From a virus (Duplodnaviria; Caudoviricetes), in the IMG/VR virus record IMGVR_UViG_3300031998_000005: DNA of 64,000 nt; one strand, written 5' to 3'. The position numbers and the translations under genes are program-made. The notes beneath the pieces are model-generated. The model did no database searches and was not told where the DNA came from. It saw nothing but the letters and a program-made list of their open reading frames with translations. Position 1 is the stretch's first letter. Every line of letters begins with the position of its first letter. Below, one piece after another: positions 11,489-31,942 of the stretch.

Positions 11489-12655
11489 TTACTTCTCCTT
11501 GTTATACATATTTTTGGCAACGATGGAATCCATTTCCACCGTCTTTTCGGGTGCTCGGCTCATAGCGGACTCGTGCATTCTGTCAAGCAAAGCCATTTCG
11601 TCAGTGATGACTGCCTGGTGCTTTTCAGCCACTTTTTCGGGAGCATACTTGCGGGTAAAACCTTCTGCCATTTCAGCACCCATATACTTGGTTGCAACTT
11701 TCCTGGCTTCGTTCACATCTTCCTGCAAGAGCGACTTTACAAGGGTGGCGACTTTCTTCTTATCATTACCAACAAAGGATTCTCCCTTGAAACGATACTG
11801 CGAGGCGACACTTTCGCACGGCTCGGCTTCTTCCATCGCAGCACACCATTCGTCATCTTCGCAAGTATCTGCCTTTTGGCAAAGGGCATTGTCAATAATG
11901 CAGTTCACGGCAGACACAAGGAAAGAACGGAGTTCTTCAAGTTCGTAATCGGTCGGGTATTCGGGGATATTAAGGGCAAGGTCGCCCGTTTCGTCATTAT
12001 AACCACCATCAATGGTGTCCGCTCCGTAATACGGGGCAGGCACAAATTCCTGGGTAGGCTTGACGAGTTCTGCCGAACCACGGACGAGCAACTGACCGCC
12101 TTCATTGGCGATAGTCACGCCTGTGCCTTCCAAAGCGTCATTAGCAAGAGCGATGACGGCATCAAGTTCAATCGGGAAACCATCGGTGTCCACAGCGTTT
12201 TCAAGTTCTTCTTTCTTCTTGAAACTAGAACCCGTGGTCTTGTTTAGGGCATCCATAAACTTGTCGGGGTCATCAACCTCAATAGCAGAACCGTCGCCAT
12301 CTACGACATATTTCTTGCCGTCCTTTTCAAAGGACTTCACGGAGTTCTTGCCATCGCTGTAAACGGATTCAGCCTTAACAGGGTCAAACTCTACGGACAC
12401 GTTATAAGTAGCGTTGTAGCCGTTGGAAATCGGTGTCATACGAACGGACTCAATGACAGGCGAGGATGCCTTAATCTTGTCCATAAGTTGCGTGACGGCA
12501 CCTGCACCGCCCGTTACGGATTCGGTAAACGAGAAGCGACCACTCTTGTATTGGTCAATGTGGAACGCTTCACCGATGCCGTGACCAAAAGTAGCCTTAA
12601 TCCCGTTAGACAGGTCAGCCCAAAATTTAGTCTTTGCGTTTTCAGTGAAATTCAT
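11489..12655 (-). CDS. putative head internal/core protein with many xES sites
   Basis: Acidic, 388 aa; FTES/VIES/CES/MHES motifs; TATATTT box upstream. Confidence 0.45.
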   Translation of the reverse strand: MNFTENAKTKFWADLSNGIKATFGHGIGEAFHIDQYKSGRFSFTESVTGGAGAVTQLMDKIKASSPVIESVRMTPISNGYNATYNVSVEFDPVKAESVYSDGKNSVKSFEKDGKKYVVDGDGSAIEVDDPDKFMDALNKTTGSSFKKKEELENAVDTDGFPIELDAVIALANDALEGTGVTIANEGGQLLVRGSAELVKPTQEFVPAPYYGADTIDGGYNDETGDLALNIPEYPTDYELEELRSFLVSAVNCIIDNALCQKADTCEDDEWCAAMEEAEPCESVASQYRFKGESFVGNDKKKVATLVKSLLQEDVNEARKVATKYMGAEMAEGFTRKYAPEKVAEKHQAVITDEMALLDRMHESAMSRAPEKTVEMDSIVAKNMYNKEK

Positions 12656-12699
12656 TGTTAGGAACTCCTAGTTTAGTATATACTTCCCAAAATATAAAT

Positions 12700-12726
12700 A
12701 AAAAATCCCGTTGGAAAACCAACGGA
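12700..12726 (-). terminator. rho-independent terminator
   Basis: CCGTTGG-N4-CCAACGG followed by a T-run on the minus strand. Confidence 0.6.
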
Positions 12727-12774
12727 ATAATGTTTATTTGAAAATGTTGAACCGATTTTATTTTATACAAAATA

Positions 12775-12833
12775 AATATAACAAATTACCTAGTAATATA
12801 ACAAGATACCTAATAAATATAACAAAATACCTA
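12775..12833. repeat. three tandem copies of AATATAACAARWTACCTA (period 20-21 bp)
   Basis: Copies at 12775-12792, 12795-12812 and 12816-12833 in AT-rich intergenic DNA. Confidence 0.9.
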
Positions 12834-12854
12834 CAAAGTATCTGTCAAATTATT

Positions 12855-13019
12855 TCAGCACTGCACGGCTTCACGACCCCATTGTTCGTCAAGGTCGGGG
12901 TGTTCTTTGCGGAACTTTACCAAAGCCTTATGGATTTCCCAATCTATGTTCAATCCTTCCTTTTCGCACTTGGGCTTTAATTCGTTATAGAGTTCCTTTA
13001 CCTTTTCTTCCATTGTCAT
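12855..13019 (-). CDS. small hypothetical protein (54 aa, MTMEEKVKELY...)
   Basis: Translated by hand; GAGG RBS; TGCTATAT box upstream. Confidence 0.6.
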   Translation of the reverse strand: MTMEEKVKELYNELKPKCEKEGLNIDWEIHKALVKFRKEHPDLDEQWGREAVQC

Positions 13020-13140: not shown

Positions 13141-14820
13141 TTAGAGTTCGGGTTCGGGCATACCCGCAGGGTTCGGGGCTTCACCAGGCTCGCCATCGGA
13201 TGTCAGTTCTTCACCACCACCCTCTTCACCACCTTCGGGAGAGTATTCCTGTTCCACTTGGTCAATCACGGAGTCTTCGTCTTCTTCGGAGTCGGCTTCA
13301 CCACCGTCGGCAGAACCGCCTTCGTCATCAGCGACAATCTGCGTGATAGCGTCAGCCAAGATACCGATGACGTTCATATTGTCTTCGTTCTTGTGGTAAG
13401 ACAAAGCGTTCTTCAAGGTCACGCAGGCTTCGCCAAGTTGCTTGAACGATTCCACTGCGTTCTTCACTGCGTCTTCGGCATAGATAACCTCGTCATCAAA
13501 CTCGCCTGCAAGGGCAGCGTCCTTGACGAGATTATCACAGCAAGTCAGCACGGACTTGGTAAGAACCTCAAATTTCTTGCCAAGGGAAACACGCTTTCTT
13601 GCGGTGTAGGATTCCACCACGATACCGACAACAGCAAAGGTTTCTTCCACATCCCCGAAAGTATCGGAAGCGTCAAGGGCTTCGTCTTCCAAGCCAAAGA
13701 ACAAGGACGTGAACGAATCCCAAAGAGAAGAAATCTTGTCTTTGAGCGTGGACACCAATTCTTTGAGTTTGTCAAGCAGACCCTCGGACACAAGCGATTC
13801 GCCCGCTTTCGGGAGTGAAGCGATGTCGCTCTTGGAAAGCGTAGAAAGGTTGGTCTTGATAATCTGTGTCGGAGTGGACGCTTCTTTCACAATCTGTTCA
13901 ATAAGGTCACGGAGTTCCTTGAACTGCTTGGGGTCTATGATGGCTTCTTCAAGTTTCGGAGCAGTTTCCAACATAGCGTTCATACGTTCAAGGACAGGGG
14001 TAAGGCTGTTCTTTGCGAACTTGTCCTTAACACCATAGGTAGCCCTAGTCACGGTCACAAGTTGAACCACATCGTCAGCGTCCATAAGACCATCAGCGAT
14101 ACTATCCTTGATAGTCTGTGCGTCCACTTCAATGGCTCGTTTGGCATTGTCCATCCAAGCGGTAACAACCTTGTCGCCACGGGTAGCATAACGGCTGTCA
14201 AGAACTGTCAGCAACTGCATAACATCGGGGATGTTAGCATAGTCGGCATACACGACTTTAAGGGCTTCTTTGAGAGCGTCTTCAATGTCGGCTGCCGCCT
14301 TGACTTCGGGCGACTTGTTGAACGAGATAGCGTCCTTGATACCCTTGACAGACTGCTGTTTGAGCAAGTCCACTTTCTCGGAGAACTCGTTGAGTTTCTT
14401 GATGGACGCTTCCAAATCTTCCTTGGACTGCTTGAGGTCTTCGGACTTGGCTTTCAAGTGCTTGCGATGTTCTTCAAGCACGTCCAGGATTTCGCCAAAG
14501 TTGCGGAGTTTGGACTTGTCCTTGATAGTGACCATACCCGCACCGAACTTGGACGCTTCGGACTTCTTGGATTCGTTATACATCTGCGAAAGTTTCTTTG
14601 CAAAGGCTTTCGGACTACCCGAACGAGCGTCCAAACCCACAATTCCGTGGTCGTTAGCATACATACCGATAATGCTTTGGGGATTACACCCTAATTTCCG
14701 CAATTCAGCATTAAGTTTATCCATCCAAATTTCGTCTTCACGATTTTCGGACTGCTTCCCGAACTTACGGGTCGGCTGCACCGATTCAGTAGTATGGTTC
14801 TTAATTGTCATCTTGGACAT
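13141..14820 (-). CDS. putative prohead core/internal protein, coiled-coil, with tag leader
   Basis: MSKMTIKNHTTES leader, NESKKSE linker, highly acidic C-terminus. Confidence 0.55.
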   Translation of the reverse strand: MSKMTIKNHTTESVQPTRKFGKQSENREDEIWMDKLNAELRKLGCNPQSIIGMYANDHGIVGLDARSGSPKAFAKKLSQMYNESKKSEASKFGAGMVTIKDKSKLRNFGEILDVLEEHRKHLKAKSEDLKQSKEDLEASIKKLNEFSEKVDLLKQQSVKGIKDAISFNKSPEVKAAADIEDALKEALKVVYADYANIPDVMQLLTVLDSRYATRGDKVVTAWMDNAKRAIEVDAQTIKDSIADGLMDADDVVQLVTVTRATYGVKDKFAKNSLTPVLERMNAMLETAPKLEEAIIDPKQFKELRDLIEQIVKEASTPTQIIKTNLSTLSKSDIASLPKAGESLVSEGLLDKLKELVSTLKDKISSLWDSFTSLFFGLEDEALDASDTFGDVEETFAVVGIVVESYTARKRVSLGKKFEVLTKSVLTCCDNLVKDAALAGEFDDEVIYAEDAVKNAVESFKQLGEACVTLKNALSYHKNEDNMNVIGILADAITQIVADDEGGSADGGEADSEEDEDSVIDQVEQEYSPEGGEEGGGEELTSDGEPGEAPNPAGMPEPEL

Positions 14821-14831
14821 AACCCTGCTCC

Positions 14832-15548
14832 TTACTTAATTTTCAAATTCTTGTTCGGACGAACACCAAGGTTCTCGGCATACACATAATACGGCTGCGA
14901 AGCACCTTCCATAGTTGCGTCCACATAAACATAGGTTTCTTCAAAGACGGCATCGCCCTCGTTCGTTTCCAAATCGTAGTGTCCGTCATCTGCCATAGCC
15001 TGTTCGGTCTCCGAAACGTCTAACAAGATGTTCGTCCACCCACGTTTATCGGCAATAGCCACGGCTTCTTCCAAAGCACCTTCGGCATTATCGTCATCCA
15101 CGTCCACGTAGATGCCCGTGGTCGTATAACCACTACCCGACCAAATACTAACCTCGGTAGGCAGGAACATTTCTTCGGACGGATAATATGACACAACGCC
15201 ATAGGACTGCCCATCTGCGATGTTCACAGAATAGGGATAATCTTCATCGGGCATATATCCGTTCTCGCCCTCAATCTCACGGGTCGTGAACAATTCATTG
15301 TCCACGAACAACTGCATAAGTTGGCGGGCTTTATCTACAATCTCGGACGATGCTTCGGAGTCTTCAATAATGATGACATCCTTTTCAGCGTCATAACCCA
15401 AAGGCAGTTCCTTGCCGTCCACCACAATAAAGGACTGCTCCCCTTCAAGCACATCAAGGGCAGCGTCCTGCGGGTCTTCGGCTTCGGGGTATAGTTCCGA
15501 CAAGTCTTCGGACGTAAAGTAAAACTTTTGGTTATCGGGTTCAAGCAT
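14832..15548 (-). CDS. acidic putative internal-head cargo protein
   Basis: Very Asp/Glu-rich; ends in LKIK; N-domain resembles a module of 18305..22102. Confidence 0.55.
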   Translation of the reverse strand: MLEPDNQKFYFTSEDLSELYPEAEDPQDAALDVLEGEQSFIVVDGKELPLGYDAEKDVIIIEDSEASSEIVDKARQLMQLFVDNELFTTREIEGENGYMPDEDYPYSVNIADGQSYGVVSYYPSEEMFLPTEVSIWSGSGYTTTGIYVDVDDDNAEGALEEAVAIADKRGWTNILLDVSETEQAMADDGHYDLETNEGDAVFEETYVYVDATMEGASQPYYVYAENLGVRPNKNLKIK

Positions 15549-15624
15549 AAATTACTTACCTGTAAATAACTATTCGTTAGAAATATAACTAAAAATCAGT
15601 ATAAGCGAAAAGCCTTGCATACGG

Positions 15625-15651
15625 AAAAGCACCCCATTTCTAGGGTGCTTT
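15625..15651 (-). terminator. terminator-like hairpin
   Basis: AAAGCACC...GGTGCTTT. Confidence 0.6.
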
Positions 15652-15667
15652 CGCATTTCACAGGCAA

Positions 15668-17137
15668 TTAAAAGATTACGAGATAGTTCCCCTTTTCGTG
15701 CTTGTAGGCTTGTAGGTCGCCATCGTCAATAGCAGCCTCAATACATTCTTCCTTGCTCTTGGACTCGTCCTTGAACTTATCGTCAAGGTATTCGTCATAC
15801 ACCTCGTCAGCATCGCACCAAGCGGTGTATTGGAACAGGTTGTCAAAGAACCCGCAAGCGTCTTCAATTTCGCCCATTTCGGAGTAGTATTCCCACAGGG
15901 CATCCCAATAATCTTCGTTGTCATCAAGGTAGGCTGCGGACGCACACAGACGCATAAACATATTATAGTCTATGCCCATCATAATCTTGCCACCGACACC
16001 CTCGGATTTCTTACGGGATTCGTTCTGTCCGTGTTCTTCACGCCAATCATCCACAAGCGTAAAGCCCAAACGCAAAAGTTCATCATCTTCGGAAAGCGTA
16101 TCACGAATATCCGTGCCATACACCCCCATAAGATAATCTATCAAATCACCGCAATCTTCATCAGCAACGCACCTGTCCATCAGTTCTGCGAACTTGGGTT
16201 TCTTCCAATGGTTCTTATGAACATCTGCGTAAATCTTTTTTGCTTCGGGCAAAGTAAGATTATTGATAACTTCCTCGGATTTCTTATTTTCAGCAGTGTT
16301 TTTCATAGCACCTTTCTCCCTACAATACTTGCAAAGACCACCATAGCGGTCATAATCATACTCGGTCATAACCGCACCACAAGAGTCGCAGCGTTCCATA
16401 CTCTCTTTCTTGCCGTCCTTGCAGGATTCGGGTTTCTTGGATTCGCTCAACTCGCCACCCAAGACCTTTGCCAATTCTTCGGCGGCTTCCTTGTTAGGCA
16501 GATGAACGTAGAATATGTTTTCGTAATAGTAGTCGGCTCGTTCGTCACCGCCTTCTATCTTGATAGTAAATTCGGGGTCATCCTTTGCCTGGTCTTCATC
16601 AAAGACAATATCATCGCCCTCACCCTCATAGGTATAATACTTGGAGAGAACATCCACCACATCTTCAAGCACATACTCGGCATCGGCATACCCTATAAGT
16701 TCTTCAAAACCATCATAGGTTTCAATTTGAGTAGAACCCCTTTCGTTCTTCTTGGATTCGGACTTACCCGCCTGTTTCAAGCACTTGTCAATAAGCGGGA
16801 AGGGGTCAAAGTCACCAACGTGTCCGTCAGCCTCCCCTAGAACATCGCAATCAGCCGTGTCATATTGACACGTAAGCCAAGAGTGTCCGTTTTCCAAATC
16901 AGTGACAAGAGTCAGCATAAATTCAGTGTCGGGGGCCATTCCCTCGACATTCTTAATGCTGCAATGCCACTCGGCATATCCCTCGGAACCACCATCATTC
17001 CAAGCGTCAATCACATCGCCCTTGTCGCCAATCACAGACTGCACACAAGAACGAAATTCGGATTCAAGGTTCTGCCCATAGGCATTTCCGTATTCTTCCT
17101 GCCCATAGTCTCGTGCAAAATTTTTAATAGCGTTCAT
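15668..17137 (-). CDS. acidic multi-module polyprotein with ESKKxE linkers
   Basis: Linkers ESKKNE, ESKKPE, ENKKSE, ESRKKSE; includes a CxxC..CxxC module. Confidence 0.7.
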   Translation of the reverse strand: MNAIKNFARDYGQEEYGNAYGQNLESEFRSCVQSVIGDKGDVIDAWNDGGSEGYAEWHCSIKNVEGMAPDTEFMLTLVTDLENGHSWLTCQYDTADCDVLGEADGHVGDFDPFPLIDKCLKQAGKSESKKNERGSTQIETYDGFEELIGYADAEYVLEDVVDVLSKYYTYEGEGDDIVFDEDQAKDDPEFTIKIEGGDERADYYYENIFYVHLPNKEAAEELAKVLGGELSESKKPESCKDGKKESMERCDSCGAVMTEYDYDRYGGLCKYCREKGAMKNTAENKKSEEVINNLTLPEAKKIYADVHKNHWKKPKFAELMDRCVADEDCGDLIDYLMGVYGTDIRDTLSEDDELLRLGFTLVDDWREEHGQNESRKKSEGVGGKIMMGIDYNMFMRLCASAAYLDDNEDYWDALWEYYSEMGEIEDACGFFDNLFQYTAWCDADEVYDEYLDDKFKDESKSKEECIEAAIDDGDLQAYKHEKGNYLVIF

Positions 17138-17149
17138 CGTTATCTCTCC

Positions 17150-17842
17150 TTATGCGATATTGCCATCTTCAGTGAACTCGTATTCACGCCATTCAATTTC
17201 GTCCTTGATGTCATCATCGGACACTTCGTAGAACCAATCATAGCCGTCATCTCCAAACTGACTATCTATGTGACCCATAACATCACGAGCATAGGTTTCA
17301 AGTTCGTTCAACAAACCTATTTCGTCATCAGTCAGTTCCACGTCATAGTCGGGAACGACCTCAAGGCGGTCAGCCAACGAGTAGCCGTAACGATTGTTAT
17401 ACGCAAGGTCAATATCATAAATATCTGCCTTGTCGCACACAGCCTTGATAGCGTCCTTGTCCGAAAGGGGCTTGATGTTAGAACCCGTAAGCGGGTATTT
17501 AGACACGTCCGCATTCAGCAAATCATCTACACGCAATTTGCCGTAAGTATTAAACCCATCGCCCTGGGAATAGGACAGGGAATACTGCACTTTCAAATCG
17601 GAGTTCGGGAACAATTCATCAAGACACGTTACACACGAATCCGAGAACGTGGAGTAATCATCGCTACGAATACGCAGGATTTCTTCTTTCACTGCGTCCT
17701 TTGCCGTTTTCTTGGCTTCATCGGAAAGTTCATCGTAGGAATAAACGTCATAACTAGGCGGTTGAATCGTCCGCTTTTCGGAACGCTTATTCTTGGCGAG
17801 GCTTTCAATCTTCTTGTTCATAGAACACTTAAACTTTTTCAT
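17150..17842 (-). CDS. acidic phage protein (VYxYDELSDEAK...EYEFTEDG family) with CSMNKKIES leader
   Basis: Recognisable widespread phage/plasmid domain of unclear function. Confidence 0.65.
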   Translation of the reverse strand: MKKFKCSMNKKIESLAKNKRSEKRTIQPPSYDVYSYDELSDEAKKTAKDAVKEEILRIRSDDYSTFSDSCVTCLDELFPNSDLKVQYSLSYSQGDGFNTYGKLRVDDLLNADVSKYPLTGSNIKPLSDKDAIKAVCDKADIYDIDLAYNNRYGYSLADRLEVVPDYDVELTDDEIGLLNELETYARDVMGHIDSQFGDDGYDWFYEVSDDDIKDEIEWREYEFTEDGNIA

Positions 17843-17857
17843 AGTTCCGTCCTTTTA

Positions 17858-18292
17858 TTAAAGTTTAGACGCTGCCAAAGATACAGCCCCCGCAAGAGAA
17901 ACCATATCTTCCTTTCGTTCGTCCATAGCCTTCAGCAACTGACGGAGCGATGGAACACCCGCCAAACCGCTGTTACGATACATTTCCGCTTCGTCTTCGG
18001 GGTCAAAACCATCGGCATATTCTACAAGTTCGTCTGCCATCGCAGAAATGGTTTCAGCAAAATCTTCCCCTGCGTTCCACACCACAGAAAACGTAGCGTC
18101 ACCACCTGTAGAATAATCATAACCCGAAATCTCGGCACAGATTTCACCAGGACGATTTTCGGAAACATAAGCGGATTCAAACATCGTCCCCGCCTTTCCC
18201 ATCACACCTTCAAGCCAATCTCGGATAGCGTCATAATCGCTATAGGCTTCGTTCTTCTTGGATTCACGAACCTTAATCTTCATCTTGGACAT
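17858..18292 (-). CDS. tagged acidic cargo protein
   Basis: MSKMKIKVRESKKNE leader. Confidence 0.7.
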   Translation of the reverse strand: MSKMKIKVRESKKNEAYSDYDAIRDWLEGVMGKAGTMFESAYVSENRPGEICAEISGYDYSTGGDATFSVVWNAGEDFAETISAMADELVEYADGFDPEDEAEMYRNSGLAGVPSLRQLLKAMDERKEDMVSLAGAVSLAASKL

Positions 18293-18304
18293 AATATATT
18301 CTCC

Positions 18305-21300
18305 TTACACAAAGTAGAACAGGTTGGAACTACGGGCAGTAATCACATACTTTTTGCCCTCGTTATCACGGAGCAGGGCACCGTTCATTCCGTAAGTTCC
18401 ACGGCTCACACCGATGGTTTCAATGCCCTTCTTGCGGAGTGCCTTGGCTTCTTCATCGGAAATGGTCGTGATGTCTTCGGCTTGACCAAAACGAGCCATA
18501 TCTTTCAGTTCCTTCTGCTTCAAGGTAAGGCTCTCGGACTTCTTGGATTCATTTCTAGGGTCATACAAAATACTTGCACGATTAAGACTAGAAATAGGCA
18601 AACTAAATTCCTTACCTGTATCTACGGACTGACCCACAAATGTGCGAGGTTTTAGTTCACGAATATACTGCTTTACCCCATCAAGACTAATCATCATACC
18701 TACAACGAATTTAGTCTTGCCGTGCTTAAAATAGTCACCATCGCTATAACAATCCTTACAGAAAGCCCGATTACCCTCTCCCCAAATAGGGTCATCTGTG
18801 GGATTGCCACAGATAGAACAGATTACAGTTGCTTTCTCGGACTTCTTGGCTTCTTCCTTGCATTCGGGCAGATAGTCGCCTTGGAAAGTCTTGGTAGTAG
18901 CATAATACCACTTGCCGTCCTTATCGCCAAAGTAAGTCTGTCCAACAAGATTGCCGTTAATATCCATAGCATAGCCCGCAGTGTGGAGCCACTGCTTATT
19001 ACGAATATCGTTGAATTGTGCAGGCGTAGTAATCTCAACTGCGTCCAACGTCTTCATCTTGTTAATAAGGTCGGCACGGCTACGATACATACGATTACCC
19101 AACTTCTTCGGGGGCAAACCTTCGGTCTGCTTGCTTTCGTCATTAGCCTTGATGTCCTTGATTACAGACGGTCCATACTTTTGCAAGTAGGCGTGATAAT
19201 CGTCCATCGTCACGATTTCTTCGTAGGCACGACTATCCTTGTCAATAACATTAGTCACGGCTGTAGAAGCCCAACGCTTTAACTTTTCGGGCAGTCTGTC
19301 TTCAAACCAATCGTAGGCGACTTGCCACATAAAGTCAGTGTCTTCCTTGTCAATAGCGTCATCCTTGCCGTAGCCATAATACTTTTTCTTGGCTTCGGTC
19401 TGCTTGCTTTCGTTAGCAGGGTGTTCCGCAATCAACTTTTTAAGGTCGGCAGTAAGGTCATCCCACAGGTCTGTCAGTTTGTCTGCGGTGTAAGCCTTAT
19501 CCCACTCACGGATAACGCCAGGACCGATACCATCTTCATCAAAATCAAGAATATACGAAGCATTATCCGTAGTGCCATCATCGCAAATACCAAGAGCCAC
19601 AAGGACACCTGTGCCATCGGGCAACCACGTATAACATTCAACGTAATCGCTACTACCATTATCGCTATCCAAAGCCTCCGTATCATCAAGACCCAAATCA
19701 GCAAGAGTATTGCACAGGTCGCTGTATGCTTCGGAACCTTCTATTTCGGGGTCGCAATAGAAATAGTTTTTAAGTGTGTCGTGTCCGTATTGGTTCTTGG
19801 CTTCGGACGGCTTACCATCTGCGAAAACCTTGCGGTCAAGATAGAAACCCGCATCGCTAGGGTCATCTGCAAAAGAAGCGGAGTCGTTAGCCATTATCCA
19901 ATCGTTCAAAAGCCCCGCAGCCTTACTCACGCTACGTTCTTCATCGTAGTAAGTCGCCAACATATTGACGAAATGATTACCTTCTTTATCAGTAACAACC
20001 TTGCCACGCTTGGCAAGCCACTTGCTAAAATTCTTGATGTAGCGTTTACGCAATAACGCCATCACGTCCTTTTCAAACTTATCCGCTTCGGGGTCGGCAT
20101 CGTAGTTCACGAAATCGCCAACCTTGAACGTAGCGTCCGCTTCGTTCTTCTTGGTCTTATCGTCCTTACAATCCTTGCCCTTACAGCCCTTGTCATCGTC
20201 ATTACCCTCGGACTTACCGCCTTCGGAGTAAATGTCAAAATGCGGACTGCCGTTCACGCCATCCATAATAGCAACGTAGTCACCATCATCACTAGAACCT
20301 GTCAGTTCGCCATTGGCGAGTTTCTTGACAAGTTTTACGGCTTTATCGCCACCCTTATGGTCAGTAGTCAGCACTATAAGCATTTTAGGTTCACGACAAA
20401 GACCAAGCGGGATTTCTTCGCCATCAATAGACACATAGTCCTGGTCAAAGCAAGAGTCTACAAAGTCATTCAGCCTTTGCAAGTATTCGTCCATAGCATC
20501 GGGGTCTTCATCCCAATTCTCGCCATACTCGTCAATAATATCCTGCAACCTGTCTGCGGGGAGGTCAAGTTGCTCACAGGCTTCATCGTGGGTCATAACC
20601 TCGGCACCACGCCAAATATCTTCGTAGGCTTCGGACTTATCGCCCTTGGCGTAGTAGTCCATCTTGTTATCAAAGGCTGCGTATCGTGCTTTCTTGCGAT
20701 AGTCGGCAGTTGTCTGCTTGTCGCTAGACGAAGCCCAATAGATGTCAAACGAGTCGCCCACAATGTCGCCATTCGGCTTTTCCTGTTCGCCTGCCATAAC
20801 AATCACTTGCACAACGCCATCATCATCCTTGTAGGAATCAGCAAGTTCTTTCGCAGCATTGATAGCGTCATCTTCGTCATAGAAAGTTTTAGCCGCCTGC
20901 ATATCGTCCAAGCCTTCCTCATCGCCATCGGCATCAATGCGAGTAAGGTCCAGGGTGAAGATGTCCTTGTTGCCCTCGGCTTCGGACTTCTTGCTTTCAT
21001 CCTTTGCGTTAAGACCAAATGTTGAAGATATGCCCAAATCGTCATCAACGCAAAGGTCAAACCACTTCTTGCCAAAGGCTTTAAGGGCATCACGGTCATT
21101 GCCGTAAACATATACGGCTTTACCACCTGGAGGCAGTCGGGGGTCTTCACCCAAGTTGCGGGCGTATTCTGCACCCTTCGCAGCGTCTTCGTTAGACGTG
21201 AACACGATGACGAAGTAATCGGAGCCTTCGGCTTTATTAGACTCGGATTTACCACCAAGGACAGCATAAATCTTACTAACAAGTTCATCATCAAAATCAG

Positions 21301-22102: not shown

Positions 22103-22117
22103 AATGCTAACCTGTCG

Positions 22118-22264: not shown

Positions 22265-22270
22265 AGGACA

Positions 22271-22605: not shown

Positions 22606-22628
22606 CAAAGGTTCACACCTTTTACGGA

Positions 22629-24275: not shown

Positions 24276-24293
24276 AATGTCTTCTCCTTATGG

Positions 24294-24860
24294 TTAGGCT
24301 TTCTTGCCAATTTTGGAACGGAATTTCGCACGGGCTTCGTTGCAAGCCTTTTTACGGGCTTCGGCAGAACCCTGCTTGGATTCAGCCTTCTTCGCAGCAC
24401 GGCGGGCTTCAAGACGCTTGCGGAACGCTTCTGCACGAGCCTCATTACGGGCGGGAGCAGTAGCCTTGTTAGCAGAACGTCTGGCTTCAAGACGCTTGCG
24501 GAATGCTTCGCGGCGGGCAGCCTTGCGGGATTCTTCTGCGTCCTTGGGTTCTTCGCTACCTTCAACAGACGCAGAACCGAGAACTTCCTCTTCTTCCACA
24601 TCTTCCTTGGAGTTAGTGAGAACAGCGACAGTCACCGAGTTTTCGTTTTCCGGGTCGGGAGAAACGACAACCTGGATGTCCTTGTCTTCATCAGCGAAAA
24701 CGACTTCCGTTTCAGCAGCGTCCAACTTAACGTCGCCAACTTCAACGATGTTGTCATCTTCACGGAGTTTCTTTTCGGCTCTACGGGCTTCAAGACGCTT
24801 GCGGAAAGCAAGAGTGCGAGCCTCGTTGCGAGCAGAGATAGAGCGTTTGTGAGTAACCAT
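24294..24860 (-). CDS. scaffold / prohead core protein
   Basis: Start moved to MVTHKRS (24860, AAGGAG RBS); directly upstream of the capsid gene; 3x AFRKRLEARR around an acidic core. Confidence 0.65.
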   Translation of the reverse strand: MVTHKRSISARNEARTLAFRKRLEARRAEKKLREDDNIVEVGDVKLDAAETEVVFADEDKDIQVVVSPDPENENSVTVAVLTNSKEDVEEEEVLGSASVEGSEEPKDAEESRKAARREAFRKRLEARRSANKATAPARNEARAEAFRKRLEARRAAKKAESKQGSAEARKKACNEARAKFRSKIGKKA

Positions 24861-25046: not shown

Positions 25047-25091
25047 ATATAACAAGATACCTAATTCTACGTTGTAGGTAATTTGTTATAT
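25047..25091. promoter_or_regulatory. inverted pair of the ATATAACAARWTACCTA box (N11 spacer)
   Basis: ATATAACAAGATACCTA-attctacgttg-TAGGTAATTTGTTATAT, upstream of scaffold/capsid. Confidence 0.7.
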
Positions 25092-25141
25092 AAGGTAGAT
25101 ATAGTATTATATTTATTTTGTATGTAATCCTGTGTGCATAC

Positions 25142-25170
25142 AAAAAGAGTTCCGATTGCTCGGAACTCTC
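25142..25170 (-). terminator. rho-independent terminator
   Basis: GAGTTCCGA-N4-TCGGAACTC followed by a T-run. Confidence 0.75.
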
Positions 25171-25200
25171 TTGATGATTTTGTCGTAATTGGAATACGGG

Positions 25201-26607
25201 TTAATCCTCTTCGGACCAAATTTTACGAGCGTATTCAGTTGCTTCCGCAGAACCAAAAGGAGAGCCATCCAAAGGACTACCACTCAACACGCCATCCACC
25301 CATTCTGCAAATTCATCGGCAGTTCCAGAATAACCACCAAAGCCATCCAATTCTCGCATAATGGCATACTTACCAACGATTTCGGCGGCATCAGCATCGT
25401 TAATCACAAAGTCATCGTTAGTATGCGACAAGATTTCATCACATACTGTATCTAATGCGGTTTCTGCGTTAGATACAACAAAGTGCGAAAGGCTACTCTC
25501 GTTCTTCTTGGAAACACTCTCTTTCTTCTTCTGCATAGAACAGATGTTGGACTTGCTTTCAAAACTACCCCAACCCGTTGCAGGAGTCAGTCCACTAGGA
25601 ACATCAAAGCCCTTTTCCTTAACAATCTTAATAAGTTCGGGCATATCTTGGGGGCATTCTGCCATCGCCAACCGCAGGGTATTATTAACCTGGGCTTGAT
25701 TACGAGGATTCCAATTTTTGAACATCGGGTGCATTTCTTGTAGTTTGGCAAGGCTTTCCTTCTTCTTCTGCATAGAACAGGTGTGCTTCTTGGCTTCCTT
25801 CTTCTTGGATTCATCCACATAAACAGCATTATACGGACCCATTTCCTTACCCGTAGCACCACGATAAATCATAGACAAGTCATCACGGAAACCAAATCCA
25901 GGATGCTTAAAGCCACTACCGTCTTCAGCCGTTGCACGATGACGACCGTTCTTCCAAGAATAGTTCATAATGAACTTACCGTTAGAAGTCACATCCACGG
26001 AGTCATTATCCTTCATCGTAATCTTTATCCCCATTGTGGGATATGCCTTACTGTAATAGTCCTCGTAGTCCTTCCAAAACTGCGGATTACGCCAACAAGA
26101 CATCTTACCAAAATCGGGATAGTTCTGGTGAATGTCATACAACATAAACATCTTTTCGTTTTTCTTGGCTTCCTTCTTCTTGGACTCCATCAAATCCAAA
26201 GCAGTAGTCCCTTCCTCGTTCGGCTCGCCATACTTCTTCCAAATGGCTTGGGCTTCATCGTTATACCACTTGACATCAAAATTGTCATCGGTATAAACAA
26301 CCTTGCCAACCGCCATATCGGTGTCCCAAACTTCGCCCGACTTTTCATCATAGGGCATATAGAAGTCGGAGTAGTCCATCACCATCAGATTGCGATGCTT
26401 ATAGCCAATCTTGGAACAAAGGGTGTAGCCGTCCTGCTGATACAGGTCTTCTTCTTCATCGTAGCCCTCGCCCCAACCCATAACGAAACACAACTCGGTC
26501 CCGTCATCAGTTGTTTCAAGAGTCTTCCACCACACCACCGAACCCGATGTAGTAAGGGTCTTGATAGCGGTGTTAAAGTCCTTTCCTGTAATCTTCTTCA
26601 GTGCCAT
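25201..26607 (-). CDS. four-module polyprotein with ESKKKE and CSMQKKKES linkers
   Basis: 2x ESKKKEAKK, 2x CSMQKKKES. Confidence 0.75.
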   Translation of the reverse strand: MALKKITGKDFNTAIKTLTTSGSVVWWKTLETTDDGTELCFVMGWGEGYDEEEDLYQQDGYTLCSKIGYKHRNLMVMDYSDFYMPYDEKSGEVWDTDMAVGKVVYTDDNFDVKWYNDEAQAIWKKYGEPNEEGTTALDLMESKKKEAKKNEKMFMLYDIHQNYPDFGKMSCWRNPQFWKDYEDYYSKAYPTMGIKITMKDNDSVDVTSNGKFIMNYSWKNGRHRATAEDGSGFKHPGFGFRDDLSMIYRGATGKEMGPYNAVYVDESKKKEAKKHTCSMQKKKESLAKLQEMHPMFKNWNPRNQAQVNNTLRLAMAECPQDMPELIKIVKEKGFDVPSGLTPATGWGSFESKSNICSMQKKKESVSKKNESSLSHFVVSNAETALDTVCDEILSHTNDDFVINDADAAEIVGKYAIMRELDGFGGYSGTADEFAEWVDGVLSGSPLDGSPFGSAEATEYARKIWSEED

Positions 26608-26626
26608 AATACACCTTTCCTTTGCC

Positions 26627-27298
26627 TTATTCGGCTTCTACGTTAATTTCCTTATATCCGTCCTTGAACGAATAAGTTTCAAACTGCTTTTTGACTTCTG
26701 CCAAGAACTTATCCGCATTCGCCTGCGTCATCTGTTCTTCGGTCAATTTCATAACCACATCCAGGTCATCTTCGGGATGGCGACCATAGGTATAGTCAAA
26801 ACTGCGACTAATACGCCCGTGAAGTGTATGTTCACGCCCAAAGTTGTAAAGCCAAATCTCGGCATAAGCGAAAATCTCGCAACCTTCGCTCCACCACTGA
26901 TTTTCAAAGTCGTAGAAGTCATCGGAACGGAGGTCGCATTCCACGCCTTCCTTCTCGCATTGTTCCTTGTAGGCATCTTCGCACTGCTCCTGCAAGTAAT
27001 CGTAGTCCTTGTCAATCTTGTCATCTGCGTAGCCTTGACCGACAATGTTGTAGGAAGTGGTCATCCAAGTCTTTTTAACACCGCCATCGTTGTGGGAGAT
27101 ATATCCGCTGTAATCATCACGCTCAATATCTTCCACACCATCACCTAGTTCATACCAGGCATCACACATACCGCCACAAGACTGATTCACGTCATAGTTT
27201 TCAAGGATTTCGGTAGCCCCGTCCTTGATAAAACTATCGTAGAACTTCGCCCCTGCGGAACCGCTAGACTCGTGAACTCGGATTTTCATTTTAGACAT
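26627..27298 (-). CDS. tagged acidic cargo protein
   Basis: MSKMKIRVHES leader. Confidence 0.7.
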   Translation of the reverse strand: MSKMKIRVHESSGSAGAKFYDSFIKDGATEILENYDVNQSCGGMCDAWYELGDGVEDIERDDYSGYISHNDGGVKKTWMTTSYNIVGQGYADDKIDKDYDYLQEQCEDAYKEQCEKEGVECDLRSDDFYDFENQWWSEGCEIFAYAEIWLYNFGREHTLHGRISRSFDYTYGRHPEDDLDVVMKLTEEQMTQANADKFLAEVKKQFETYSFKDGYKEINVEAE

Positions 27299-27342
27299 AG
27301 GACTACTCTCCTTAAATCTTTCTCAATGCTGAAATATACATT

Positions 27343-28323
27343 TTATTTTTCAGTGAACTTGGACAGGTCGGCAGAACAAATCTCGTAAGTGCCCAAGTTG
27401 TAGTGGACTTTATCGCCCGAAGGCTTGACAATGCCCAACTCGGCAAGTTTCTGCAACAGCCTGCCGTCCATACTAGAACTTGCAAAAAATTCATTAGTGT
27501 CTAACGAATACCCAGGCAAGCACACAGAAACATCCGTATAAATCTCGCCATCGTCACACTCGGCAATCAAGGCAATACCATTCGTCATAGCGTATTGTTC
27601 CAAGCGGACCGTGAGATTATTTTCTTCCCCATAGGCTTTATACGTGAAATACTCCGTCCGCTTGCCGATAGGCAACTTACTCTTGCGAGCCTCGGCTACG
27701 CCTTCTTCAACCTTGTATTTGTTATACATTTCAATGGTCCACTGCTCGGCTTCTTCAACCGATGTGGTTTCCTTGATTTCACTACCATTAAAGTTTTCTG
27801 CAACATTGAACGTGAAAACACTTGCACTCAAACACACTTCCGCATCGGGAGAATACCAAGCGTCTACGACACCTGGAATGTCCGCAAGGTCGTTAATGTC
27901 GGACAACGAGCCAAACAATTCCCAATCCTTGCCGTTGCTATCCGCAGCAATCTGCTGCAAGGCATCACGGATAGATTCAACATCCACAAAAGCCACAAGT
28001 GCAGGAGCGGACGGCAAAACCGCCTTCTTGTATTCCTCCTGCATAACCTTTTCAACTTCTTCCCTGCTCGGACGGTCCTTAAAGGCAACCATAAGGTAAT
28101 TATCCTTTACGGTAGCCCTATCCACGTCAAGGGATATGTTTTCAATATCCCAAGCCACATCGGGGTCAAAATCCTCGGTGCCCTTGAATACCGCAAGTGC
28201 GTGTGCGGTATAACAAGACGGCAAGAAATCCCCAATTTCGTTCTTCAAGGACTGGGGAAGAAACAGGCTTTCGGCTTCCTGTTTCTTGCTCTCGTGCAAA
28301 CGGATAGACAATTTCTTGGACAT
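27343..28323 (-). CDS. tagged cargo protein with C-terminal DUF4313-like domain
   Basis: Start moved to MSKKLSIRLHES; C-domain (Y..NGIAL...YTDVSVCLP...L.ELGIVKPSG..Y) fits the DUF4313 pattern. Confidence 0.65.
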   Translation of the reverse strand: MSKKLSIRLHESKKQEAESLFLPQSLKNEIGDFLPSCYTAHALAVFKGTEDFDPDVAWDIENISLDVDRATVKDNYLMVAFKDRPSREEVEKVMQEEYKKAVLPSAPALVAFVDVESIRDALQQIAADSNGKDWELFGSLSDINDLADIPGVVDAWYSPDAEVCLSASVFTFNVAENFNGSEIKETTSVEEAEQWTIEMYNKYKVEEGVAEARKSKLPIGKRTEYFTYKAYGEENNLTVRLEQYAMTNGIALIAECDDGEIYTDVSVCLPGYSLDTNEFFASSSMDGRLLQKLAELGIVKPSGDKVHYNLGTYEICSADLSKFTEK

Positions 28324-28338
28324 TGTGATACACTCCAA

Positions 28339-28614
28339 TTACTTATATTTTTCCAACTGCTGAAAGACATAACTAAACGCATCGTTAATGCGTTCCTGCT
28401 TTCGGGCGAGATTTTCCGCAATTTCAGTAGCAGTGCCATACGCAGAATCGGCAGCACCATCTTGAATGTCTATAATACTCCCCCAAAGGGATTCTATGGG
28501 AGAGCGACTACCGATGATAGCAGAAATGTCTTTAAGTTCATCCTGCAAATTTTCAAACTCGCCCTGCAAGGACTCGTTGCTTTCGTGCAAACGGATAGAC
28601 AACTTTCTAGGCAT
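28339..28614 (-). CDS. tagged small helical cargo protein
   Basis: MPRKLSIRLHES leader. Confidence 0.65.
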   Translation of the reverse strand: MPRKLSIRLHESNESLQGEFENLQDELKDISAIIGSRSPIESLWGSIIDIQDGAADSAYGTATEIAENLARKQERINDAFSYVFQQLEKYK

Positions 28615-28617
28615 ACC

Positions 28618-29655
28618 TTAACCTCCAAGGATGTAAGAAATCAGGCTGCCATCATTGGCTTCGTCCTTCTTGATAGCCTTGGCTTCCAAGACCTTGAACG
28701 TCTGCGGTGCAGGCTGTTCACGCTCAATGCTTTCGTAAGTAGCACCCGCCTTGCGACGCTCCTTAACGTAATCTTCATTAAGCCCGTTCTTGTTGGCGAA
28801 TTTCAACTCACGGATAGTTTCTTCGGACATCTTGATTTCTTCCTGCAAGTCTTCCACGAACTTGACGATAGACTGCTTGATGTCCTCGGTCACCTCGGTA
28901 AAGTCTTCAAACTTATACGTGTCGTTAGAGCCGTCATCGCAGTTGGACATTTCACAGCCGTTCTTGTCAAGGCTTTCAACGATGTAGGTGCTTCCGTCAA
29001 GTTCAACGGGTGCCCCAAGTTCGTTAGCCAAGGAAAGCAGGCTTTCAGCAACACGTTCGTTCACGGATTCTTCAAGGGCTTCCTTCTTCTTGGATTCCGA
29101 AATAACCTTGGGCTGTGCGTCAAGGAAACCAGGGTCTTGAACAAAGTCAAAGCGTTCAAGTTTGTAAGTCTTGGGGTCAAGAATGTCGTTGCCATCTTCG
29201 TCCTTGCCTTCGTAGTCGCCATCGGCACGGGAACTGACATACATCGTAGTTCCTGCACGGAGAATGGTGTAAAGGGTCTTACCCATATCCGTATTGTAGA
29301 TGACCGATTCAGCAATGCCCGTCTTCCAATCAATGTTGCGGGTAATATGGGAGAACTTGCCCTCGGCAATATCTTCGTCAGTGATTTCGGCTTCGTGTCC
29401 GATACGACCGAACATCTGTCCGTTCTTGAGTTTGCGTTGCACATCTTCGTCTTGACCCGCAACTTCCCAAAGTTCTTCGGTGTAAAGACGATGATTACGG
29501 CTTACCTTGCCAGGGCAGAAATGCTGACCCTTGACAATGGCGAGAATAGTGCCGCCGCTCTTGGCAACCTCGGATTGAGCGGACTCGTCCACACGGGCAA
29601 TATCGTCCACGAACTCGCACTTAAACGGGATATAATCTTCTGCAATTTTCTGCAT
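28618..29655 (-). CDS. prohead core protease (T4 gp21-like)
   Basis: SRNHRLY, GRIGH (catalytic His), SHI, TDMGKTL, VSSRADG (catalytic Ser), FDFVQDPGF; ESKKKE after the domain. Confidence 0.92.
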   Translation of the reverse strand: MQKIAEDYIPFKCEFVDDIARVDESAQSEVAKSGGTILAIVKGQHFCPGKVSRNHRLYTEELWEVAGQDEDVQRKLKNGQMFGRIGHEAEITDEDIAEGKFSHITRNIDWKTGIAESVIYNTDMGKTLYTILRAGTTMYVSSRADGDYEGKDEDGNDILDPKTYKLERFDFVQDPGFLDAQPKVISESKKKEALEESVNERVAESLLSLANELGAPVELDGSTYIVESLDKNGCEMSNCDDGSNDTYKFEDFTEVTEDIKQSIVKFVEDLQEEIKMSEETIRELKFANKNGLNEDYVKERRKAGATYESIEREQPAPQTFKVLEAKAIKKDEANDGSLISYILGG

Positions 29656-29704
29656 AGTAAACTAACCTTCCTTATCTACAATAGGTGTAAATGCTACCAC
29701 AAGT

Positions 29705-30001
29705 TTATTCCTTGTAATCCATAATCTGCCTAATAAGGGCATCTGCCCATTCATCCATCGGGATTTCATCAAAAGACGAACCCCATACATCGGAGTAGAA
29801 CTCATTACTAGGTAAATCATTCATCACGTTGTTAATAAGTTTACCAAACGGACCGCTATTAAAAGAACCTAGACCTAGCATCAGTGTCCACCATCCCTCA
29901 CGTATTTTTTCAACGGCACGGATAAGGTCTTCTTTAGATTTTGGTTTTTCAAAATCTTCGTTCTGCTTGGTTTCGTGAACCTTGATAGTCATTCTACCCA
30001 T
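29705..30001 (-). CDS. tagged cargo protein, paralog of 31637..31942
   Basis: MGRMTIKVHE leader. Confidence 0.65.
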   Translation of the reverse strand: MGRMTIKVHETKQNEDFEKPKSKEDLIRAVEKIREGWWTLMLGLGSFNSGPFGKLINNVMNDLPSNEFYSDVWGSSFDEIPMDEWADALIRQIMDYKE

Positions 30002-30005
30002 AAGG

Positions 30006-31625
30006 TTATTCTCCTAAAAATTCAATGAGATTTTCATACGGGGTTTCACCGAAATCTTCGTAGTTCAAGTAACTATCGTTAATATCATCCTTATCCCATA
30101 CAGCACGGATATTGTCTAACAACTTGCGGAGCAGTTTCTTATCATATCCTGCAAGGAACGCATTATAGAAATCAATCGCTGTAGGAATAAAGTCGGGGTC
30201 GTGTTCAAGCAACAGGTTAAGTGCTTCTTCATTATTCGTTTCGCCCACGACTCGTTTCCAATCTTCCACAAAATTCAAATCCCGTTCACTATCCCAACTA
30301 TAACGATAGGGATAACTACCATCCTTATCTGCGGGAGCATCTGTGTATTCGTCCCAACCCGCATAAAGCCACGGTTTGTCGGGTGTCGGAGCAGTTCCCG
30401 CAAAAAGTTCCTTCATAGTATCTACATCATTATTGAGAATAGCCCAACCCATAGGGTCGTGGTCATCCACGTAGAACCCATCAGCGGAACTTTCGTGTGT
30501 AACAATATCACCGCTACCATAGACAGAAGCAAGGTCAGCACCGTCGCCACGGGCTTCGGAGTGTTTAGCACGGGGCTTACGAGTAGCCCGCTTTACATTT
30601 CTTACAAAGTCATCCCACGAATCCCCTGGGTGCTTACGAACGCCTGCTGAAATACCTTTAAGAACAATATCCAAATCGTCCAAAGTATCACAAGTCATAT
30701 GCTGATGACCATACATAATGAAAGACACTTCATAATGCGTTTGAATATCACTAGAACCACCAAGACCCGTGAAAGTTTCAGTGTAGATAATGACTTCGCC
30801 ATAGGGAGAATTATAAACTATCTTCTGCTTTTTCGGGTCAATCTTGGCATCGGGGCTGTATTTCTGTGCGACTTTAAGAGCGTCCTGCAACGCCTTACGG
30901 TCCTTGGCATACATACTGCGATAAGGTGCTTGGTCGCCTGTGCGTTCAAGTTCATCGTCATCAAAGACGGATTCGGTAGGCTTTTCGTTCTTACGTCCGA
31001 CCACGCCTGTCGGTGCGACCCCAAGCGATGATGCAGATGCACCATCTTCGTTCTTAAAACCCTTGGACTTCTTCCAAACCGCATATTCGGACGGGTCATC
31101 AATCTTTGCAATAACCCCGTGGAAACCATCAGTTACCATATTGAACCAATCCTTCACAATCAGTTCAATCGCATCGTAAGCCATATCAAACGGCTCGTCC
31201 TGCAAGCCTTGATTTACAACCGCCACAATGGGTTCTGCACCAACTACGTGAATATCAAGAAGATGGGAGTCCGTGCCCTTACTATAAACGGAGTGGCAAG
31301 CGTCTTCATCCTTACGATAATCCGACTTGACATAGAAATACTTACCGCTCGGATTGTCAAACCCACGGATAAACAATCCCTTAATCACAGCGTTCAAGTC
31401 ATCCCATTGGTTAGACAAATCCACATCGTCCAAGACAGATTCCGAAATCTTCGTAGCAGAACGGATAGGAGCGGTCACACTTGCAAGGTCGCCAAAGTCG
31501 CCATAAGTGCGGGGGAGCAAGGATTCATAACGAGCCTGGGCTTCGTCCTTGTCCTTAAAGGCTTCAACTTTCTTCTTGCCGAAGAAATCCGTATAGGAAA
31601 TAGTCCAATTAAGTCCTTTTGTCAT
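30006..31625 (-). CDS. multi-module putative internal head protein
   Basis: ISES/KNE/PTES/HSE/THES sites; internal NEDGASASSLGVAP peptide. Confidence 0.6.
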   Translation of the reverse strand: MTKGLNWTISYTDFFGKKKVEAFKDKDEAQARYESLLPRTYGDFGDLASVTAPIRSATKISESVLDDVDLSNQWDDLNAVIKGLFIRGFDNPSGKYFYVKSDYRKDEDACHSVYSKGTDSHLLDIHVVGAEPIVAVVNQGLQDEPFDMAYDAIELIVKDWFNMVTDGFHGVIAKIDDPSEYAVWKKSKGFKNEDGASASSLGVAPTGVVGRKNEKPTESVFDDDELERTGDQAPYRSMYAKDRKALQDALKVAQKYSPDAKIDPKKQKIVYNSPYGEVIIYTETFTGLGGSSDIQTHYEVSFIMYGHQHMTCDTLDDLDIVLKGISAGVRKHPGDSWDDFVRNVKRATRKPRAKHSEARGDGADLASVYGSGDIVTHESSADGFYVDDHDPMGWAILNNDVDTMKELFAGTAPTPDKPWLYAGWDEYTDAPADKDGSYPYRYSWDSERDLNFVEDWKRVVGETNNEEALNLLLEHDPDFIPTAIDFYNAFLAGYDKKLLRKLLDNIRAVWDKDDINDSYLNYEDFGETPYENLIEFLGE

Positions 31626-31636
31626 ACAAGCGACCC

Positions 31637-31942
31637 CTAGCGGTTATGAACCTTGATTTTAAGATGACTTTCAGTCTTGCCATTACCCAGGCTTTCAAGA
31701 TACTCAATCATAGCATCGCAAAATTCTGCAATCCGCAGTTCATCATAGGAACGTGGAGCGAACGAATCGCCATACAACGCATCTATAGCAGGGACATCTT
31801 CGCAGGCTTGGTTGAACCAACCACCATACTCGTTCTCACGCCCAGGAATTACAACGGCATCGGAGTTTATAAGGGTTTCGTTGAACCCATCACGCATTTT
31901 CTTAAAGCCGTCTATAAGTTCTTGTTTCGTAATGTTAGACAT
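31637..31942 (-). CDS. cargo protein with C-terminal tag (TESHLKIKVHNR)
   Basis: Paralog of 29705..30001. Confidence 0.65.
   Translation of the reverse strand: MSNITKQELIDGFKKMRDGFNETLINSDAVVIPGRENEYGGWFNQACEDVPAIDALYGDSFAPRSYDELRIAEFCDAMIEYLESLGNGKTESHLKIKVHNR

Follow-up and report, generated by a model that had tools for sequence, protein, structure and literature searches.

In phage T4, a capsid-targeting sequence and the prohead protease gp21 form the textbook route by which proteins are loaded into the head and injected, and T4 protein-delivery engineering builds on this route. The T4 capsid-targeting sequence with the gp21-processed internal proteins (PMC3012670, PMC9026906) is the closest described system to the one considered here, a block of polyprotein and small-protein genes around the prohead protease, scaffold-like and capsid genes of an uncultured phage (IMG/VR record IMGVR_UViG_3300031998_000005; a linear virus genome of 215,686 bp, 46.8% G+C, 99% complete by CheckV). 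The stretch analysed, hereafter the window, comprises 64 kb (64,000 nucleotides) and corresponds to the minus strand of genome positions 114370-178369; the genes of the block are transcribed on the window minus strand. T4 gp21 has L/I-x-E as its site, with the cut after Glu, and self-processing at its C-terminus is presumed (PMC9026906). Maturation by gp21-related proteases (gp175/gp245) has also been described for phiKZ, 201phi2-1, and SPN3US (PMC10052503, PMC5694885); SPN3US gp245 removes its own C-terminal propeptide (PMC10052503), and phiKZ gp175 is likewise C-terminally processed (PMC9026906). Polyvalent proteins combine 2-15 unrelated domains, are encoded among virion genes, and are predicted to enter the host with the DNA, proteolytic release of their domains having been proposed (PMC5512222). 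PeSL cassettes are intergenic promoter/stem-loop elements that exchange whole genes in T4-type genomes (PMC2839356, PMC4122927). A full-text literature search on polyproteins and phage prohead proteases returned no account of cargo polyproteins with a uniform linker. The evidence assembled below suggests that, in this phage and its relatives, T4-style capsid targeting and gp21-type processing have probably been expanded into mosaic polyproteins that are cleaved and packaged.

A recurrent linker and shared N-terminal signals

A first-pass annotation of the window had reported ESKKxE linkers recurring around the head genes, and counting confirmed this. In a six-frame translation of the whole genome, the motif E-[ST]-K-[KQ]-x-E matched 21 times, whereas residue shuffles of the 909 open reading frames (ORFs) of at least 80 amino acids (aa) averaged 0.36 matches, with 3 at most. 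Twenty copies lie on the coding strand in two clusters, 15 of them at window 14557-29974 and five at genome 100.9-109.1 kb; the 21st, in an ORF at genome 11853-12500, is probably a chance match. The 15-copy cluster encloses the T4-type protease, the scaffold-like gene, and the capsid gene, as had been proposed, except that the scaffold-like gene is 24294-24860(-) and not ORF 24272-24601. Its copies are distributed over eight ORFs, for which 0.03 were expected: six in the 1265-aa ORF, two each in the 489-aa and 468-aa ORFs, and one each in the 559-, 144-, 326-, and 98-aa ORFs and the protease (Table 1). The "at least 8 clear" linkers originally credited to the 1265-aa ORF reduce to six strict copies, plus six degenerate ones. 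Synonymous codons differ among the linker copies (Ser TCC/AGC, Lys AAG/AAA, Glu GAA/GAG), which indicates that the motif is selected at the protein level; a pure DNA-level repeat was rejected as a full explanation on the same ground.

The modular construction of the 1265-aa ORF was mapped with metagenomic homologues (126 shorter proteins found, the best 120 analysed). Each of the 120 covers 6-23% of the query, and their alignment ends pile up sharply at the six strict and six degenerate linkers, giving 12 modules (residues 1-103, 104-185, 186-374, 375-495, 496-632, 633-655, 656-768, 769-903, 904-994, 995-1089, 1090-1190, and 1191-1265). Half of the 246 internal homology boundaries (50%) were found within 10 residues of a strict linker, compared with 10% at random positions. 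Across the 54,553 residues of the homologues the strict motif occurs 231 times, with 140 different sequence contexts, and the residue after the second Glu is Ser, Ala, or Gly in 77% of these motifs. Thirty-four module combinations were observed; the first module is always N-terminal, and the last (ending SSNLFYFV, in ~80 proteins) is always C-terminal. In six IMG/VR loci with capsid proteins 90-94% identical, the motif is kept and the module sets differ, pieces of the 1265-aa ORF being located in other genes or as separate ORFs. Three further carrier genes, of the 489-, 559-, and 539-aa types, take the same modules. Relatives of the 559-aa protein have extra modules M9 and M10 ahead of the same body, and a C-terminal module ending GNYLVIF is common to the 489-aa ORF and its relatives. 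The 539-aa ORF (30006-31625) had been listed among the linker polyproteins; it has no strict motif here, although the gene is mosaic in relatives, in which the first ~210 residues are conserved and the remainder is swapped for M9/M10 modules and strict linkers.

Fifteen otherwise unrelated ORFs begin with M-S-K/N-M-K-I-K-V-H-E-S or close variants (pattern M-x(2-5)-[KLT]-[IL]-[KRST]-[IVL]-[HR]-E). They form three clusters, at genome 100.2-102.8 kb plus 107.3 kb, window 18292-30001, and genome 202.5-203.6 kb. The leader codons vary and the DNA upstream of these ORFs is unrelated, indicating a peptide signal; a shared promoter or ribosome-binding element behind the common N-termini was considered and rejected, the upstream sequences being unrelated. 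Like the T4 capsid-targeting sequence, the leader is ~10 aa long, is shared by unrelated proteins, and ends in a putative P1 Glu. MSKMKIKVHE bears by eye no likeness to T4 MKTYQEFIAE, and the relation between the two appears to be an analogy of function and position, accompanied by a homologous protease and capsid protein. A second signal, C-S-M-Q/N-K-K-K/I-E-S-L (CSM signal), heads four ORFs (window 17150-17842(-), genome 105221, 105704, and 202073) and also occurs twice inside the 468-aa ORF (CSMQKKKES, residues ~275 and ~365), just after the ESKKKE linkers.

Leader and linker can stand in for one another (↓ marks a putative cleavage point). In three ORFs the leader continues directly into the linker, e.g. 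MSKMKIKVR-ESKKNE-A. M10 follows ND-ESKQTE↓GLPPK in the window polyprotein and MSNKKFKITVK-ESKKSE↓GLPPK in homologues P0116 and P0118, and M4, M5, and M7 are found singly behind leaders. M1 starts as MKKSE↓ANIEDL in relatives and as M↓ANIEDL here; the same mature end is predicted for both, because cleavage after the second Glu in the one and Met removal in the other would produce it. In locus L004, one ORF terminates in ESKKSEA. Such interchangeability would be hard to explain by a mere spacer.

Leader-like C-termini were also seen just upstream of the next gene (HLKIKVHNR at the end of 31637-31942(-), NLKIK at the end of 14832-15548(-), and NIKVHNA at genome 106279), and may be decayed internal sites of former fusions. 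Among the leader-tagged ORFs outside the window, one at genome 104207-105208 (L007:6208-7209; variant leader MGLTIKIKENKKKE↓S) encodes a ParB-like nuclease (phrog_1033; PF08857 at E 2e-4, below cut-off). It provides the only functional lead and is a candidate head-packaged enzyme, ParB-like domains being known head-packaged components, as in P1 DdrB (PMC5512222).

The modules appear to be folded units under purifying selection. The ratio of nonsynonymous to synonymous substitution rates (dN/dS) between the window and relatives was 0.06-0.33 for the modules, much as for the core genes encoding capsid, protease, and sheath (0.05-0.16), with dS often saturated. AlphaFold2 (AF2) models built with homologue alignments gave confident domains (predicted local distance difference test score, pLDDT, 70-95) for modules 1, 4, 5, 10, 11, and 12. 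The possibility that linkers fall inside folded domains was examined in the two AF2 models: eight of nine strict or degenerate linkers were coil of pLDDT<50 between domains, and one was located at a helix start. Module 11 and the 489-aa ORF contain zinc ribbons. Searches in Pfam, PHROGs, Foldseek (PDB and BFVD), and ESM Atlas returned no functional match, and only zinc ribbons, small beta-barrels, and ferredoxin-like folds were recovered. The polyproteins had no significant match in Pfam or PHROGs; Foldseek against PDB gave none at E<=0.001, with weak SH3/Tudor-like barrels and a MamM-CTD-like (C-terminal domain) ferredoxin fold; for module 1, every ESM Atlas match was to an unnamed viral cluster. 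A "Lar restriction alleviation" label on homologue P0103 was a sub-threshold zinc-ribbon match (26.4 vs 28.6 bits) and was not counted. BFVD gave one good match, an uncharacterised stand-alone siphovirus protein of 68 aa, 44% identical, that probably corresponds to the last module. This module (18308-18532(-), 75 aa, pLDDT ~90) could be the carrier's anchoring part, or just a conserved 3′ gene end.

The prohead protease and the proposed processing route

The protease matches PF03420 over residues 41-189 (profile positions 46-197 of 198; E 2.5e-4, 21 bits, under the 27-bit cut-off), and several of its homologues have a precomputed PF03420 match. The protease-family profile matched T4 gp21 (5jbl, E 6e-4), with T4 PKEITES aligned to PKVISES. 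Twenty-four family members of 30-95% identity were aligned, and all have H87, H103, S141, and S142. In the crystallised T4 chain 5jbl, Ala stands opposite both H87 and S141, presumably because the catalytic His and Ser were replaced to inactivate the enzyme. The catalytic Ser is probably S141. The reported position of ESKKKE directly after the catalytic domain was verified, the S77 profile ending at residue 189 and the motif occupying residues 187-192. In the same alignment [ILV]-[ST]-E187-S188 is nearly invariant, and the KKxE half that follows is present at protease identities of at least ~66%, and lost or altered below. Two candidate self-sites are placed at the domain end, V-I-S-E187↓S and K-K-K-E192↓A, the first of which aligns with T4 ITE↓S.

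In the capsid protein, which contains no ESKKxE, an N-terminal alignment revealed a family-invariant K57-x-Y-E60-S61 (K57-R-Y-E60↓S61 here) where a gp23-type propeptide should end, making this the probable maturation site; VNE65, considered initially, is not conserved and was dropped in its favour. The scaffold-like protein contains 3-4 repeats of ARNE↓A..FRKRLEARR and is 82-89% identical in relatives. A proposed consensus of K/R-x-(x)-E with Ser, Ala, or Gly as the next residue would cover capsid, scaffold, leader (K-V-H-E↓S), linker (K-K-x-E↓A), and CSM signal (K-K-K-E↓S).

More distant relatives, with proteases 45-62% identical, have a compact head module (protease, a ~150-aa scaffold-like gene, and capsid) and no polyprotein block; in one of them, L014, the capsid gene is not beside the protease. 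Small neighbouring ORFs in these relatives start with leader variants (MIIKVHE, MIRIRVRQKANE↓A, and MKINLVSKTNE↓A), and their scaffold-like proteins, which start M-x-I-K-...-KKNE↓A, have KKNE↓A or ESKKAE↓A. Since the compact relatives have both, the leader and a K-x-E↓A site are ancestral in the family, and since they have the leader and no block, the polyprotein block is a clade-specific expansion.

The following route is proposed. The gp21-type protease would cut after Glu in K-x-x-E sites that precede Ser, Ala, or Gly, the site coming in three guises, the leader M-S-K-M-K-I-K-V-H-E↓S, the linker E-S-K-K-x-E↓[A/G/S], and C-S-M-Q-K-K-K-E↓S. The leader on 15 ORFs would act like the T4 capsid-targeting sequence, and the signal-bearing proteins would co-assemble with the scaffold into the prohead core. 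At maturation, the protease would trim itself at V-I-S-E187↓S-K-K-K-E192↓A and the capsid protein at K-R-Y-E60↓S, and the polyproteins would be cut to free modules of ~75-190 aa. Of the fates open to these, the most likely would be to remain in the head and exit with the DNA, as do T4 IPI-III and Alt, because they are folded domains on which purifying selection acts. The linker's coding DNA of 18-21 nt would serve as in-frame microhomology, through which recombination swaps modules among genes and phages. The parts of this route differ in strength. That the linkers are cleaved is quite likely, and packaging into the prohead is likely; retention in the head followed by ejection is put forward tentatively, by analogy with T4, and an anti-defence or host-takeover role is doubtful. 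Ejection, anti-defence activity, and DNA mimicry of the modules are speculation at present.

The view that the modules are independent substrates of the prohead protease, joined at a uniform site within the head module, is supported by indirect but convergent sequence evidence, as is the idea that a given module can travel either within a polyprotein or alone behind a leader of the capsid-targeting kind, and the earlier figure of some 30 products from the block is of the right order. Several points weigh against it. The clade is uncultured, and cleavage, packaging, and ejection are all predictions from sequence. The L/I-x-E rule of T4 is not literally matched, as the linker has Lys at P3 and P4, unlike the aliphatic P3 of T4. 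The K-x-x-E↓small consensus has a low information content and is too short for a statistical test. The 1265-, 489-, and 468-aa polyproteins lack an N-terminal leader. In the structural models, linker residues 98-103 form a helix start at pLDDT ~70, ~26% of modelled residues are under pLDDT 50, and the low linker pLDDT may stem partly from changes in alignment depth at mosaic junctions. The linker Ser is TCC or AGC in 19 of 19 copies here and in 22 of 24 in relatives, where codon usage predicts 44%; this points to a DNA-level effect, or to common descent or exchange of linker DNA, besides protein selection. Pfam, PHROGs, Foldseek against PDB and BFVD, and ESM Atlas linked none of the modules to an anti-defence or effector family already described. 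Most modules are acidic, as had been noted (eight of 13 segments of the 1265-aa ORF have net charges of -4 to -25), unlike the basic T4 internal proteins; acidity fits DNA mimicry and expendable core material equally well.

Such expendability is the substance of the strongest alternative, in which the polyproteins build the prohead core, are chopped, and are expelled as pieces before or during DNA packaging, as with T4 gp22, gp67, and gp68, and are not injected. The location of the genes beside those for protease, scaffold-like protein, and capsid, the acidity, and the failure to find a function for any module would all agree with such a filler; in addition, T4 core proteins are cut to several fragments that exit the head (PMC9026906), and SPN3US has long propeptides that are cut several times (PMC10052503). 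This alternative is nevertheless considered unlikely, as the modules appear to be folded domains of 75-190 aa with dN/dS of 0.06-0.33, and zinc-ribbon and ParB-like domains are present. The peptides known to escape from T4 proheads are short, smaller than the modules. Capsids ~90% identical with different module sets would be unexpected for a structural template, the same modules occur as single leader-tagged proteins resembling T4 internal proteins, and distant relatives make the same head type without the block.

A second alternative holds that the products are uncleaved multidomain virion proteins, acting or delivered at full length, with ESKKxE as a flexible charged spacer and recombination joint. 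Mosaic polyvalent proteins are often packaged unprocessed, e.g. the N4 vRNAP (PMC5512222), and the linker DNA is nearly identical among copies, with its restricted Ser codons. Against this, the motif occurs at the end of the protease catalytic domain, homologous to T4 gp21 ITE↓S, and directly after N-terminal leaders, where no interdomain spacer is needed; relatives begin M1 with MKKSE↓A or end an ORF in ESKKSEA; and E, S, K, and E are held strictly constant in 140 distinct contexts, more than a spacer would need. Full-length action thus appears quite improbable. Cytoplasmic processing without packaging, whether by the phage protease or by an enzyme of the host, as an expression economy of the kind found in RNA-virus polyproteins, would account for large polyproteins that lack a leader, but is very improbable, given that gp21-type proteases are not known to be active outside the assembled prohead, that motif and leader occur in just three gene clusters, with the window motif cluster built around head genes, and that the leader is comparable in length and position to the T4 capsid-targeting sequence and likewise ends in Glu.

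Features of the block and its setting

The features are collected in Table 1. The protein encoded at 14832..15548 is an uncertain member of the system.

Table 1. Genes and sites of the proposed cargo block and adjoining features (window coordinates; ↓, putative cleavage point).
Feature	Position	Strand	Remarks
Tail sheath	9222-11486	(-) per region orientation	phrog_23
559-aa protein	13141..14820	(-)	degenerate leader MSKMTIKNH; one linker, 14557-14574; conserved coiled-coil body; acidic tail
238-aa very acidic protein	14832..15548	(-)	conserved in relatives; no linker
489-aa polyprotein	15668..17137	(-)	strict linkers 16742-16759, 16427-16444; degenerate linkers NKKSE↓E, RKKSE↓G; zinc-ribbon module
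230-aa protein	17150..17842	(-)	second signal type MKKFKCSMNKKIESLAKNKRSE; phrog_5162 (function unknown)
144-aa protein	17858..18292	(-)	leader + linker MSKMKIKVRESKKNE↓A
1265-aa polyprotein, ~12 modules	18305..22102	(-)	homology breakpoints, AF2 models
Strict linkers of 1265-aa ORF, residues 98, 180, 369, 898, 989, 1185	21794-21811, 21548-21565, 20981-20998, 19394-19411, 19121-19138, 18533-18550	(-)	
Six degenerate sites of 1265-aa ORF			at module boundaries: KSESNKAE, GDKSE↓A, GGKSE↓G, TKKNE↓A, GKPSE↓A, AKKSE↓K
Major capsid protein, T4 gp23 type	22629..24275	(-)	PF07068, E 1e-9
Scaffold-like 188-aa protein, Arg/Glu/Ala-rich	24294..24860	(-)	assigned solely from composition and from its place just upstream of the capsid gene
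468-aa polyprotein, between protease and scaffold	25201..26607	(-)	ESKKKE 26170-26187, 25795-25812
223-aa acidic protein	26627..27298	(-)	leader MSKMKIRVHES
326-aa protein	27343..28323	(-)	leader + linker MSKKLSIRLHESKKQE↓A; weak DUF4313 match
91-aa protein	28339..28614	(-)	leader MPRKLSIRLHES
Prohead protease, 345 aa, T4 gp21 / Peptidase S77 type	28618..29655	(-)	phrog_207, E 1.6e-21
Protease ESKKKE, residues 187-192	29080-29097	(-)	directly after catalytic domain
Protease weaker site E-S-A-Q-S-E, residues 22-27			
98-aa protein	29705..30001	(-)	leader + linker MGRMTIKVHETKQNE↓D
539-aa protein	30006..31625	(-)	no strict linker
101-aa ORF	31637..31942	(-)	C-terminal end leader-like, LKIKVHNR

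The biggest gap in the block is an AT-rich non-coding stretch of ~340 nt at 24861-25200, 5′ of the scaffold-like gene, which is likely a late promoter region. Very long antisense ORFs of 596-1094 aa (8664-11948(+), 22788-24932(+), 27595-29724(+), and 16865-18655(+)) face the sheath, capsid, protease, and polyprotein genes and are selected by naive longest-ORF calling; they are probably codon-bias shadows.

Megablast against GenBank phages gave no DNA-level match to this genome, and the closest capsid matches by tblastn (Acinetobacter, Vibrio, Ralstonia, and Rhizobium phages) are 25-34% identical, for which reasons the phage is taken on its sequence to be a very divergent T4-like jumbo myophage. 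The match of the 1265-aa polyprotein to GenBank phages is confined to its first 95 residues. The metagenomic relatives come from rumen and gut-type samples. Further genes seen in relatives (L014:17292-18647; L015:2567-3358; L009:9007-9696; L012:722-2419) include a reverse-transcriptase gene by fibre-like genes, which is a possible diversity-generating retroelement, a Tad3-family gene near head genes, and genes of the 7-deazaguanine pathway, GTP cyclohydrolase I and QueC, adjoining the protease.

Comparison with known systems

The clade appears to scale up the T4 route, with at least 15 tagged genes and with polyproteins that would yield ~30-45 small proteins. If cleavage and ejection are true, these would be a large, fast-evolving pool of uncharacterised early-acting proteins, candidates for anti-defence or host takeover; the leader and linker would offer a sequence rule for finding such proteins in metagenomes, and the system would present a natural design for multi-cargo capsid loading. 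It is conceivable, though somewhat against the odds, that head-protease polyproteins are a general combinatorial platform for injected effectors, in which the cleavable linker doubles as the recombination joint; small effector modules could then pass between carrier genes and between phages, enter the capsid as a single chain, and be set free as dozens of separate proteins, making the polyproteins the phage counterpart of polymorphic toxin cassettes.

The likeness to T4 extends to a Glu-ending leader of ~10 aa on unrelated, fast-evolving proteins, as in IPI, IPII, IPIII, and Alt, to a homologous gp21/S77 protease with a site after its catalytic domain, to a gp23-type capsid, and to genes partly scattered outside the head module. 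Unlike in T4, the leader is unrelated to MKTYQEFIAE and stands on at least 15 ORFs as opposed to 3-4, the modules are mostly acidic where the T4 internal proteins are basic, and they are fused by a uniform six-residue linker into polyproteins of up to 1265 aa.

In phiKZ and SPN3US, as is proposed here, many head, inner-body, and ejection proteins are cut after Glu, with several cuts in each, and the C-terminal part of the protease is self-removed. Their sites are S/A/G-x-E or A-x-E, however, and processing there is mostly removal of propeptides from paralogous single proteins; neither a linker of uniform sequence nor mosaic chains of unrelated modules have been described in them. A PHROG search detected no match to phiKZ/SPN3US ejection or inner-body families, and P3 of the linker is Lys, not a small residue.

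With polyvalent proteins, the 1265-aa polyprotein and its kin share a multidomain make-up (~12 modules), a virion-gene context, mosaic orthologues, and predicted delivery. Neither the polyvalent repertoire (zincin-like MPTase, ART, DdrB-ParB, PBECR, LPDs, methylases) nor an embedded peptidase was detected in the polyproteins with Pfam and PHROGs, and processing here would differ in being carried out in trans, by the prohead protease, at a defined and repeated linker. As in PeSL cassettes, a short conserved sequence flanks variable units and could serve as a recombination joint between close relatives; unlike in those cassettes, the joint here is part of the coding sequence, specifies a peptide signal, and lets protein modules be swapped in frame.

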